Of a stretch of 64,000 nucleotides of DNA, positions 8,165 through 26,753 are shown in pieces (position 1 is the first letter of the stretch; the number at the start of each line of letters is the position of its first letter). A model generated the notes under the pieces. It was not told where the DNA came from. It did not search any database and worked only from the letters and a program-made list of their open reading frames with translations. This stretch comes from Escherichia coli (GTDB taxonomy: Bacteria; Pseudomonadota; Gammaproteobacteria; Enterobacterales; Enterobacteriaceae), in NCBI RefSeq assembly GCF_003790525.1, contig NZ_CP033635.1; one strand, written 5' to 3'. A program made the position numbers and the translations under genes.

Positions 8165-9076
8165 GTGAGTACATTAGAACAAACAATTGGCAATACGCCT
8201 CTGGTGAAGTTGCAGCGAATGGGGCCGAATAACGGCAGTGAAGTCTGGTTGAAACTGGAAGGCAATAACCCGGCAGGTTCGGTAAAAGATCGTGCGGCAC
8301 TTTCGATGATCGTCGAGGCGGAAAAGCGCGGCGAGATTAAACCGGGTGATGTGTTGATCGAAGCCACCAGTGGTAACACCGGCATTGCGCTGGCAATGAT
8401 TGCCGCGCTTAAAGGCTATCGCATGAAATTGCTGATGCCCGACAACATGAGCCAGGAACGCCGTGCGGCAATGCGTGCCTACGGTGCGGAACTGATTCTG
8501 GTCACCAAAGAGCAGGGCATGGAAGGTGCGCGCGATCTGGCGCTGGAGATGGCCAATCGTGGTGAAGGAAAGCTGCTCGATCAGTTCAATAATCCTGATA
8601 ATCCCTTCGCCCATTACACCACCACCGGGCCGGAAATCTGGCAGCAGACTGGCGGGCGCATTACCCATTTTGTCTCCAGCATGGGAACAACCGGCACTAT
8701 CACCGGCGTTTCACGCTTTATGCGCGAACAATCCAAACCGGTGACCATTGTTGGCCTGCAGCCGGAAGAAGGCAGCAGTATTCCGGGCATTCGCCGCTGG
8801 CCTGCGGAATATCTGCCGGGGATTTTCAACGCTTCGCTGGTGGATGAGGTGCTGGATATTCATCAGCGCGATGCGGAAAACACCATGCGCGAACTGGCAG
8901 TGCGGGAAGGAATATTCTGTGGCGTCAGCTCCGGCGGCGCGGTTGCCGGAGCACTGCGGGTGGCAAAAGCTAACCCCGGCGCGGTGGTTGTGGCGATCAT
9001 CTGCGATCGCGGCGATCGTTACCTTTCTACCGGGGTGTTTGGGGAAGAGCATTTTAGCCAGGGGGCGGGGATTTAA
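8165..9076 (+). CDS. cysM: Cysteine synthase B (O-acetylserine sulfhydrylase B)
   Basis: GTG start at 8165 gives 303 aa (VSTLEQTIGNTPLVKLQRMGP...), PLP-enzyme fold; the track ORF from 8087 is a 5' extension through the REP. Confidence 0.9.
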   Translation: MSTLEQTIGNTPLVKLQRMGPNNGSEVWLKLEGNNPAGSVKDRAALSMIVEAEKRGEIKPGDVLIEATSGNTGIALAMIAALKGYRMKLLMPDNMSQERRAAMRAYGAELILVTKEQGMEGARDLALEMANRGEGKLLDQFNNPDNPFAHYTTTGPEIWQQTGGRITHFVSSMGTTGTITGVSRFMREQSKPVTIVGLQPEEGSSIPGIRRWPAEYLPGIFNASLVDEVLDIHQRDAENTMRELAVREGIFCGVSSGGAVAGALRVAKANPGAVVVAIICDRGDRYLSTGVFGEEHFSQGAGI

Positions 9077-9078
9077 GA

Positions 9079-9538
<460 letters not shown>

Positions 9539-9551
9539 GAGAAAAAATTAA

Positions 9552-10403
9552 ATGAGTAGTTTGTTGTTGTTTAACGATAAGAGCAGGGCACTGCAGGCGG
9601 ATATCGTTGCCGTGCAGTCGCAGGTAGTGTACGGCAGCGTAGGCAACAGCATTGCGGTGCCTGCTATCAAACAGAACGGCCTGAATGTCTTTGCCGTGCC
9701 GACGGTATTGCTGAGCAATACGCCGCATTATGACACTTTCTACGGTGGTGCGATTCCGGATGAATGGTTTAGCGGTTATTTGCGTGCGCTTCAGGAGCGT
9801 GATGCGCTGCGCCAACTTCGTGCTGTAACCACGGGCTATATGGGAACGGCATCGCAAATCAAAATCCTTGCCGAGTGGCTGACTGCGCTACGCAAAGACC
9901 ATTCTGACTTATTGATTATGGTCGATCCGGTGATCGGCGATATTGATAGCGGAATTTATGTCAAACCTGACCTTCCCGAAGCGTATCGACAATATTTACT
10001 GCCGCTGGCGCAGGGAATTACCCCCAATATCTTTGAGCTGGAAATCCTGACCGGTAAAAATTGCCGCGATCTCGACAGTGCCATTGCTGCCGCAAAAAGT
10101 CTGCTTTCAGACACATTAAAATGGGTGGTGATTACCAGCGCCTCCGGTAATGAAGAAAATCAGGAGATGCAGGTGGTGGTGGTCAGTGCCGACAGCGTGA
10201 ATGTCATTTCCCATTCACGGGTTAAAACTGACCTGAAAGGGACTGGCGACCTGTTTTGTGCTCAGCTTATCAGTGGTTTGCTGAAAGGGGAGGCGTTAAC
10301 CGATGCGGTGCACCGCGCGGGGTTGCGCGTACTGGAAGTGATGCGCTATACCCAGCAGCATGAGAGCGATGAATTGATTTTGCCGCCGCTGGCGGAAGCA
10401 TAA
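9552..10403 (+). CDS. pdxK: Pyridoxal/pyridoxine/pyridoxamine kinase
   Basis: 283-aa ORF matching PdxK ([32 protein letters not shown]...). Confidence 0.95.
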
Positions 10404-10411
10404 AAAAATGG

Positions 10412-10423
10412 CGCCGATGGGCG
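10412..10423. repeat. Left copy of the 12-bp target-site duplication (cgccgatgggcg) flanking IS4
   Basis: Identical 12-mer directly abuts both IS4 termini (10412-10423 and 11850-11861). Confidence 0.75.
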
Positions 10424-11849
10424 TAATGCCAGTCAGTTAAGCAACTGACTGGCTCTTTTTCGGGGCTGTGGGGTATTTCCAGGGCCTCTCCTTTACCACT
10501 CTCGGGAAGGCCCTTTCCCTTCTTGTCGGTAATTTCACAAGTTGTCCCATACTTGCAAGATCGCGCATCAGCTCCGGTATACGTCCCGGTGAAGCGCCCT
10601 GCAATGTCATCAGCATTCTCATCACCATTCCACATGATTCTGAGAAACTCAGTTGATTCGGCCAGTAACCTTTCAGATGTTCCGCCATTTTAATCATCTG
10701 ATATCTCACCAGATTATAAGCCAGTAAGACACCCCACAGCTCTTGCTCCACAAGCTCCGGTTTTTTACTTCTCAGCGTCAGCCTGCTCAGTTGCATCGTC
10801 TGTTTTATCTCCCTGTATCCCAGTTCGATTTCCCAGCGATGACTGTACAGATCCGCCATTTCTCCTCCGGGGAAGCGCATGGCGTCCGTCATCGACGTCA
10901 GCAGATGGCAGACTTTTCCTTTGCGCGTCACGGTCAGCAGGCGGGCTGTCACTTCATTTCCCAGTCCCGGCCACTTTTTTCGTGCCTGCGGGCTGGTTTT
11001 CAGCTTCACCAGATGATCGCCTTTACCCAGTTTTCTGATCTCTTCATATTGCGCTCCCTTTCTGAGAGGTATCATCCAGTGGCGGTGTTCTCCCGCCAGG
11101 CTCCAGGCATTTAACAGTCCCAGTGAGTAATAACCTTTATCCATTAACGTCAGAGTGTTATCGCCGGTTTGTTCTATAAGTTGCTCAGCAAGCTCATTTT
11201 CGCTGTTCTTCATCGTGCCGAAGGCTGCAGCCGTCAGCAGATGGCTGGTCAGTTCCATCTGGCAGACCATTTTGACCTGCGGGTAGAGCGCCGGGTTCCC
11301 GGCATGTGTCTGGCGGGGGAAGGCTGCATCGTTCTCTGGTGTATCCGGTGTGCGCCAGAACACACCATCGATGGCCAGCAGGGTCAGGCCGCACCAGTGC
11401 GGATGCGGCGTGGCGTTATGCCAGAGCTGCGCTGTTTTCGTGAACACGCGGCGGACAGCCTCACTTCCCAGGCGCTGGCGGGCCTGAATAACGGCACTGG
11501 GGGCAACGAAGGGGCGATTGCCCGGCAGCATGATGTCCAGGCGATTCACAATCTGGTGAAGAGGTTCTTTACGCTCAAGCGCCATGCCAACAATACACCA
11601 GACCATCATTTCGAGGGGAAGACGGCGCTTGCGTAGCGTTACAGTACCTGATTCGGCAAGGCAACGAGAGATGAGTTCGGGGTCGAGGTAATCCCCCAGA
11701 GAAGTCAGTGGGTTACGCAGAGAATCGTAACGGGATACCAGATCAAGAGCCTGTCCAATGTGCATAAAAAAATCCGGAAACAAGTGAGCGTTTCCGGATT
11801 CTTACACAGCCACTGGATCGGTCAACTGATCCTTAACTGATCGGCATTA
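10424..11849 (-). mobile_element. Insertion sequence IS4, 1426 bp, complete
   Basis: Terminal inverted repeats TAATGCCAGTCAGTTAAG (left) and TAATGCCGATCAGTTAAG (right, reverse complement), 16 of 18 matching; encodes the full-length transposase; flanked by a 12-bp direct repeat. Confidence 0.92.
10437..11765 (-). CDS. insG: IS4 transposase (DDE family)
   Basis: 442 aa from [26 protein letters not shown]..., the IS4 InsG sequence as I recall it; no frameshift or stop. Confidence 0.92.
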
Positions 11850-11861
11850 CGCCGATGGGCG
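11850..11861. repeat. Right copy of the 12-bp target-site duplication flanking IS4
   Basis: cgccgatgggcg, identical to 10412-10423. Confidence 0.75.
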
Positions 11862-11883
11862 CCATTTTTCACTGCGGCAAGAA

Positions 11884-12393
11884 TTACTTCTTGATGCGGA
11901 TAACCGGGGTTTCACCCACAGTCACGCTACCGGACAGTTTGATCAGTTCTTTGATTTCGTCCATGTTGGAGATAACAACCGGAGTCAGGGTAGACTTGGC
12001 TTTCTCTTCCAGCAGCGGCAGATCGAATTCAATCACGGTATCGCCAACTTTCACGCGCTGACCTTCTTCAGCAATACGCTTGAAGCCTTCGCCTTTCAGT
12101 TCAACGGTGTCGATACCGAAGTGGACGAACAGTTCAACGCCGCTATCAGATTCGATAGAGAACGCGTGGTTGGTTTCAAAGATTTTACCAATGGTGCCGT
12201 CTACAGGCGCGACCATTTTGTTACCCGTTGGTTTGATAGCAATGCCATCACCAACGATTTTTTCCGCAAAAACGACATCCGGCACGTCTTCGATATTGAC
12301 GATCTCGCCAGAGAGCGGAGCAATGATCTCAATAGTTCCGGTATCCTTCTTGTCGTCGGAAACCAGAGATTTCAGTTTATCGAACAAACCCAT
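11884..12393 (-). CDS. crr: PTS glucose-specific enzyme IIA
   Basis: 169-aa ORF ([39 protein letters not shown]...). Confidence 0.97.
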
Positions 12394-14796: not shown

Positions 14797-14824
14797 AAAA
14801 AAGCACCTGAAAAGGTGCTTTTTT
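14797..14824. terminator. Rho-independent terminator downstream of cysK (symmetric A-run/hairpin/T-run)
   Basis: aaaaaagcacctgaaaaggtgctttttt: 6-bp GC-containing stem flanked by A and T runs. Confidence 0.6.
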
Positions 14825-26726: not shown

Positions 26727-26753
26727 AAAAAAGCGCCTTTAGGGCGCTTTTTT
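26727..26753. terminator. Bidirectional Rho-independent terminator shared by xapR and the val/lys tRNA operon
   Basis: aaaaaagcgcctttagggcgctttttt: GC stem with A-run and T-run on opposite sides. Confidence 0.65.

Follow-up and report, generated by a model that had tools for sequence, protein, structure and literature searches.

Position of the IS4 copy

The DNA analysed (the window, a stretch of 64,000 nucleotides of the Escherichia coli contig NZ_CP033635.1) contains pdxK, the gene of pyridoxal kinase, and in convergent orientation crr, which encodes EIIA of the glucose PTS and is the last gene of ptsHI-crr. Between the stop codons of the two genes resides a complete insertion sequence (Table 1). 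Over a stretch of 24 kb, the window shows 100% identity to E. coli SMS-3-5 (NC_010498.1) as well as to a set of close relatives.

Table 1. Features of the crr/pdxK locus. Positions refer to the window; a point marks features without strand.
Feature	Position	Strand	Basis or remark
pdxK (pyridoxal kinase), CDS	9552..10403	+	ORF list; RefSeq annotation of the identical SMS-3-5 locus
pdxK stop codon TAA	10401-10403	+	overlaps the A-run of the terminator
Split hairpin, left half: A7 (10402-10408), arm TGGCGCC (10409-10415), loop GATG (10416-10419), first 4 nt of the other arm	10402..10423	.	reading; fold of the reconstructed site
Target-site duplication, left copy, 12 bp, CGCCGATGGGCG	10412..10423	.	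script; same duplication in 12 other genomes
IS4, complete, 1426 bp	10424..11849	- (transposase strand)	direct reading and script
Terminal inverted repeats of IS4	10424-10441 and 11832-11849		16/18 positions matching
Left-end inward-facing terminator-like hairpin, 11-bp stem, 4-nt loop, tail UCUUUUU	10428..10460	+	terminator scan; fold
IS4 transposase (InsG-type), intact, 442 aa from ATG	10437..11765	-	ORF list; NF033592; PF13006, PF01609
Right-end inward-facing terminator-like hairpin, 13-15-bp stem, 6-nt loop, U7 running into the transposase ATG (11765)	11766..11803	-	fold
Candidate transposase promoter TTGACC-16-AAGAAT with upstream TG	11798..11825	-	consensus scan only
Target-site duplication, right copy, 12 bp, CGCCGATGGGCG	11850..11861	.	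script
Split hairpin, right half: duplicated stem top and loop, rest of the arm, T5 (11865-11869)	11850..11869	.	direct reading and script
crr stop codon	11884-11886	-	direct reading and script
crr (PTS glucose EIIA), last gene of ptsHI-crr, CDS	11884..12393	-	ORF list; RefSeq annotation

The element is IS4. All of its testable defining features were found, i.e., the length, the terminal repeats, the transposase, the target duplication and the arms of the target. The two imperfect 18-bp terminal inverted repeats both open with TAATGCC, the left end of the element reading TAATGCCAGTCAGTTAAG... and the right end ...CTTAACTGATCGGCATTA. Its transposase scored 304.5 bits against the NCBIfam model NF033592 ('IS4 family transposase'; cutoff 115), contained the Pfam domains PF13006 (Nterm_IS4, 7.6e-33) and PF01609 (DDE_Tnp_1, 1.1e-31) and is identical to the RefSeq protein WP_000483766.1, 'IS4-like element IS4 family transposase'. 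PGAP places the start of the gene at an upstream TTG (11783), which would extend the product to 448 aa. The open reading frame and both ends are intact, as claimed by a sequence-only reading of this DNA which preceded our analysis. In comparison to the IS4 of E. coli K-12 (insG, the type element of the IS4 family and a member of the IS4 subgroup), which likewise has 1426 bp, TAATGCC repeats and a DDE transposase of 442 aa, the element differs in location only; the nucleotide comparison was made with copies in 12 other E. coli genomes and disclosed 0-14 differences. We also searched the window for a second IS4. This candidate was rejected, as no further IS4 end with up to 4 mismatches was detected.

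The 12-mer CGCCGATGGGCG is present in only two copies on both strands of the 64-kb window, both of which abut IS4, and the adjoining bases do not continue the repeat on either side. The probability of a 12-bp chance match at fixed positions is approximately 6e-8. The two flanking 12-mers agree with each other in this assembly and likewise in 12 further complete genomes that are independent of it, and the direct repeat that had been proposed was thus corroborated. Its length falls inside the range of 10-13 bp tabulated for target duplications of the IS4 subgroup (PMC2266710, Table 1).

The interrupted hairpin

The sequence between the pdxK stop codon and the left end of IS4 is AAAAATGGCGCCGATGGGCG. 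Deletion of IS4 and one copy of the repeat restored a crr/pdxK spacer of 42 bp, AAAAATGGCGCCGATGGGCGCCATTTTTCACTGCGGCAAGAA, which is identical at every base to that of K-12 MG1655 (locus L014), where the site is empty. Both the empty site that had been anticipated and the absence of this copy from MG1655, which had been stated, are therefore correct. The spacer is composed of A7, TGGCGCC, GATG, GGCGCCA and T5 and thus forms a perfect palindromic hairpin with a GC-rich stem of 7 bp and a loop of 4 nt. Using shuffled sequences as controls, the RNA of the restored hairpin folded with -19.6 kcal/mol (z -4.7) on the plus strand, the direction of pdxK, and with -20.4 kcal/mol (z -5.8) on the minus strand, the direction of crr. 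Each strand has a U-tract and each side a stop codon; by sequence, the restored site thus lacks no hallmark of a bidirectional intrinsic terminator shared by the two genes, and it is predicted to act as such. A literature search for transcript mapping or other experimental evidence on a crr/pdxK terminator yielded none.

A consensus terminator scan gave no call for the empty-site hairpin in MG1655 (L014, 2300-2350). We attribute this to greedy stem extension, by which the U-run was absorbed. The scan probably misses hairpins with pairable flanking A- and T-runs, as they occur in bidirectional terminators; the MG1655 crr/pdxK hairpin and a hairpin at the right end of IS4 were both overlooked though strongly folding. 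We relied on folding with shuffled controls instead of the scan. Rfam disclosed no RNA family between positions 9000 and 13000 of the window, even with E values up to 1.

As had been recognized from the sequence, IS4 splits the palindromic hairpin located between the stop codons of the convergent genes crr and pdxK. On each side of the element, folding left only a mini-hairpin of 4 bp, from which we infer that the shared terminator has been destroyed for both genes.

Occupancy of the site among E. coli genomes

The distribution of the insertion was determined in 5,426 complete E. coli genomes, a match being defined by at least 80% query coverage. The reconstructed empty site was found in 5,369 of the genomes, confirming the reconstruction. 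The pdxK/IS4 junction occurred in window orientation in 38 genomes and with inverted IS4 in 16, so that the site is occupied in 54 genomes, approximately 1% of the collection. SMS-3-5 and its close relatives contain IS4 at this position, and so do unrelated lineages. In 25 of the 38 genomes with window orientation, the junction matched that of the window with 100% identity, and the genomes among them that were compared over 24 kb proved to be SMS-3-5-like. An assembly artefact was rejected because the identical junction is shared by 25 independent complete genomes.

Thirteen occupied loci were fetched, which had been chosen to span the range of flank identities. In all of them (13/13) the same 12-bp target had been used, in either orientation (6 versus 7), while their flanks exhibited up to 75 differences over 1,740 nt. 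The strains FDAARGOS_1249, VR50, SCPM-O-B-12142 and HH35 have flanks that deviate by only 0-2 nt from MG1655, and yet among them each of two IS4 variants, which are 11 nt apart, is found in both orientations, giving four combinations. Thus, at least four independent insertions must have taken place in this background alone. The other occupied lineages showed 15-75 differences over the 1,740 nt. Polymorphisms residing only 10-25 nt from the junction (A6 versus A7, gcGgaagc versus gcTgaagc and an inverted loop in RMDEC465) also argue for independent insertions. The insertion had previously been treated as a one-off. This view has to be abandoned: IS4 has repeatedly entered the crr/pdxK hairpin, which is a hot spot for either orientation, and the orientations are about equally frequent, as predicted for a symmetric target.

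In the divergent strain RMDEC465 (L006, 2339-2350 and 3777-3788, corresponding to 10412-10423 of the window), the loop of the hairpin is CATC instead of GATG. Since the loop is inverted, the duplication of this strain, CGCCCATCGGCG, is the reverse complement of the usual one. The inversion looks like a flip polymorphism of a perfect palindrome.

IS4 insertions at other terminators

Partial matches of the junction queries led to further IS4 copies in E. coli, four of which were fetched. They reside, symmetrically placed, in the hairpin terminators of lpp/ldtE (two genomes), eno and bamD. At lpp/ldtE the duplication comprises 13 bp in one genome and 12 bp in the other, while eno (L034, 2516-2529/3956-3969) and bamD (L035, 2516-2529/3956-3969) each gave a perfect duplication of 14 bp. 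The latter exceeds by one base the 10-13 bp tabulated for the IS4 subgroup (PMC2266710). All of these sites, when reconstructed, show an A-run, 3 nt, a palindrome beginning with C and ending with G, another 3 nt and a T-run, and fold with approximately -25 kcal/mol. The cut always lies 3 nt past the A-run and ahead of the C. With the cut 3 nt inside the A-run, the length of the duplication seems to track the spacing between A-run and T-run. The crr/pdxK target corresponds to this scheme (A7-TGG-[12 bp]-CCA-T5). The crr/pdxK (10402-10423 and 11862-11873) and lpp/ldtE (L033, 2493-2532/3972-3985) terminators, both targets of IS4, have near-identical arms, AAAAAAATGGCGC...GCGCCATTTTTCACT; it is chiefly the stem top and the loop that set them apart. 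The resemblance may be due to constraints common to both or to a sequence preference of IS4.

An exact-match scan for the right end of IS4 (30 nt) in one genome per species revealed 18 further junctions, 16 in Kosakonia oryziphila, one in Photorhabdus khanii and one on a contig of 265 nt labelled Methylobacterium; it returned no E. coli representative. Considering one flank each of 22 independent sites from E. coli, Kosakonia, Photorhabdus and the short contig labelled Methylobacterium, TTT began 14-19 nt outside IS4 in 17 (background 9%, binomial P 4e-14). The first flanking base was C in 23 of 26 flanks. Since the T-run is absent in five of the 22 sites, the preference is strong, not absolute. 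In the K. oryziphila strain REICA_142 (L015-L030), at least 16 contigs contained the 30-nt right end, mostly approximately 90 or 340 nt from the contig ends; these matches of a draft genome imply an expansion of IS4 outside Escherichia. The exact match of Photorhabdus came from P. khanii NC19 (L031). The 265-nt contig, labelled Methylobacterium mesophilicum (L032), may be a contamination.

A relaxed form of the target pattern combined with a palindromic stem was found three times in the reconstructed window of 62.6 kb. Only the crr/pdxK site shows the A-run-to-T-run spacing of occupied sites (18-20 nt). The two other perfect A-run/hairpin/T-run palindromes are the terminator of cysK (14797-14824, spacing 16) and a hairpin at 26727-26753 (spacing 15). 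The cysK terminator, which served as control, gave a match in 5,425 genomes and was not interrupted in any of them. The second control hairpin is located beside xapR within a variable tRNA-Val/Lys array.

Insertion of IS4 into terminator-like palindromes is already known from the older literature. Mayaux et al. (Gene, 1984) reportedly found IS4 in the attenuator terminator of pheST and gave the target consensus AAA-N20-TTT, to which the crr/pdxK site conforms (AAA, then A, 18 nt and T, then TTT). There, too, the element reportedly lies in the hairpin of a terminator that has A- and T-runs on its sides, the duplication being centred on the hairpin. This mutation is reported to have arisen in the laboratory, to affect the terminator of a leader and to have a regulatory phenotype, whereas the crr/pdxK insertion is natural, fixed in a lineage and located where two convergent genes share a bidirectional terminator at their 3′ ends. 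Our findings on target preference agree with De Palmenaer et al.

Origin of the recurrent insertions

The data are very probably explained by standard cut-and-paste insertion of IS4 into a preferred target. This target would consist of an A-run, 3 nt, a palindromic C...G stretch of 11-14 bp, 3 nt and a T-run, and would thus correspond, at the DNA level, to a bidirectional intrinsic terminator. Two staggered cuts, each placed 3 nt inside its run, would cause duplication of the stem top and the loop (12 bp in our case), and because the target is symmetric, the element could enter either way round. The SMS-3-5 lineage, in which the transposase reads in the same direction as crr, would represent one of many separate events.

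Two alternatives have been weighed against target preference. E. coli core genes recombine, and a single ancestral insertion might have spread between lineages by homologous recombination of the crr-pdxK segment. The identical junctions in the SMS-3-5-like genomes (25 of 38) could be taken in favor of this idea, and on their account vertical inheritance does explain most copies of the window-orientation group. A common origin of all insertions is, however, extremely improbable in view of both orientations at one identical 12-bp target, of the four combinations of orientation and variant on essentially identical K-12-like flanks, of the polymorphisms next to the junction and of the like behavior of IS4 at three other terminators, at lpp even with two stagger lengths. 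The recurrence might also reflect positive selection for an altered expression of crr or pdxK, e.g., via the dosage of EIIA-Glc, rather than a preference for the target. The dosage of crr affects catabolite repression, and 54 insertions in one 12-bp site are a high count. We nevertheless consider selection an improbable cause of the recurrence. Under this hypothesis the nearly equal orientations in the sampled lineages are not accounted for, nor is the geometry, which recurs at terminators of unrelated function as well as in Kosakonia and Photorhabdus. Furthermore, each of the sampled occupied genomes contains 3-31 IS4 copies, as against about none in the median genome; this is what would be expected of hits that become more numerous with IS4 activity. 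According to the place counts, the crr/pdxK site accounts for approximately 1% of the IS4 left ends present in the collection. As a contribution to the recurrence, for instance through changed expression of crr or pdxK, selection could still play a part besides the target preference of IS4.

Hairpins at the ends of IS4

Inside each end of the element we identified an inward-facing, terminator-like hairpin. The one at the left end, GCCAGUCAGUU-AAGC-AACUGACUGGC followed by UCUUUUU, begins 5 nt inside the end that is entered from pdxK, covering nucleotides 5-37 of IS4 and starting 25 nt past the pdxK stop codon. It was called by the consensus scan, folded with -18.7 kcal/mol (z -6.1) and was invariant in 13 copies. 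Part of its sequence also encodes, on the opposite strand, the final codons and the stop codon of the transposase. The hairpin on the path from crr, GAAUCCGGAAACG-CUCACU-UGUUUCCGGAUUU followed by U7, lies approximately 47-84 nt from the right end of IS4 and 85-120 nt past the crr stop codon. It folded with -18.8 kcal/mol (z -5.3), and among the 13 copies its sole variant (position 11782) changes a G-U pair to G-C; the consensus scan gave no call for this hairpin (11766-11803). According to folding, both end hairpins are approximately as stable as the lost crr/pdxK terminator.

A candidate promoter of the transposase gene matches the consensus at 9 of 12 positions, two such matches being present in the region as against a mean of 2.4 in shuffled sequences. 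Its predicted start point is located within the 5′ arm of the right-end hairpin, and for this reason only transcripts arriving from outside would be able to form the hairpin. An escape of the native transposase transcript from the right-end hairpin, as it would ensue if the predicted promoter is real, is speculative.

By sequence, read-through from crr and pdxK is predicted to stop probably within approximately 40-120 nt, the expected transcript ends being 55-60 nt past the stop codon of pdxK and 115-120 nt past that of crr. Of the previous suggestion that transcripts from either side may enter IS4, the part concerning a short distance thus probably holds, while passage further into the element is at variance with the predicted activity of the hairpins at both ends. 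Extensive read-through would mean that crr transcripts run into the transposase gene and activate it and that pdxK transcripts cross IS4 in antisense direction and proceed into crr. This would be conceivable inasmuch as the original hairpin and its U-tract are gone for both genes, leaving the 4-bp mini-hairpins, and crr and the transposase gene are co-directional. It is nonetheless unlikely, since transcripts from pdxK meet an 11-bp hairpin with UCUUUUU only 5 nt inside the element, those from crr a 13-15-bp hairpin with U7 directly ahead of the transposase ATG, and neither structure is appreciably less stable than the terminator that was lost. In at least two genomes IS4 is inserted co-directionally behind lpp, which is among the most highly expressed genes of E. 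coli, a situation hard to tolerate without insulation. Behind eno and bamD it is inserted convergently. The lpp, eno and bamD insertions fit a tolerance of IS4 behind highly expressed genes in either orientation.

Termination at the end hairpins is the outcome that we favor. The two structures would probably stop the incoming pdxK and crr transcripts, each 3′ UTR would be longer by tens of nucleotides, and the transposase gene would be shielded from the strong ptsHI-crr transcription. IS4 might accordingly be tentatively regarded as a 'terminator-swapping' element, which homes to bidirectional intrinsic terminators and, in place of the one destroyed, supplies two inward-facing terminators from its own sequence, an idea for which the odds are somewhat short of even. 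The variable duplications of 11-14 bp would be explained by it, as the A and T arms would set the positions of the cuts. If it is true, insertion should be nearly neutral even behind lpp, eno and crr, the transposase would be shielded from read-through, and the crr/pdxK site would be a natural hot spot with at least four and probably ten or more insertions, which may serve as an assay target.

Relation to other elements and significance

The transposases of IS10 and IS50, the elements of Tn10 and Tn5, are protected from outside read-through by sequestration of the ribosome-binding site. IS4 may share their logic, in that a structure would be formed only in transcripts started outside, while its own shorter transcript would escape. 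It differs by the putative mode of protection, a terminator-like hairpin with U7 instead of the sequestration of a ribosome-binding site. With regard to the target, IS1397 and ISKpn1 insert into REP/BIME elements and ISRm22, a member of the IS4 family, into REPs (PMC1525189). Like IS4, they select a palindromic intergenic structure and thereby avoid coding sequences (PMC1525189). The targets of IS1397, ISKpn1 and ISRm22 are repeated REP elements, whereas the IS4 insertions described here lie in intrinsic terminators which occur in single copy and possess A and T arms.

By itself, the insertion matters little. The insertion sequence is a classic one, this copy is annotated in RefSeq, the SMS-3-5 genome has been published, and the element disrupts no gene. 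In a literature search we did not find the crr/pdxK hairpin documented as a repeatedly occupied hot spot, nor the ends of IS4 as replacement terminators. The hot spot and the replacement-terminator-like ends are modest additions to a well-understood element. The locus is a clean natural example of a mobile element choosing a safe site, which is intergenic, symmetric and structurally defined, and if the end hairpins terminate transcription, IS4 restores the function that it breaks. A single 12-bp target occupied in approximately 1% of the complete E. coli genomes represents a ready system to study target recognition by IS4. The insertion may also mark the SMS-3-5-like lineage.

Another difference to K-12 was noticed upstream of pdxK. 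The WGR-domain gene yfeS, which in MG1655 is located between cysM and yfeK (L014, 207-941), is absent from the window at positions 9076-9079. In SMS-3-5, yfeK directly follows cysM, while yfeS is present in K-12 and several other strains. The gene thus shows a presence/absence polymorphism across the fetched loci.
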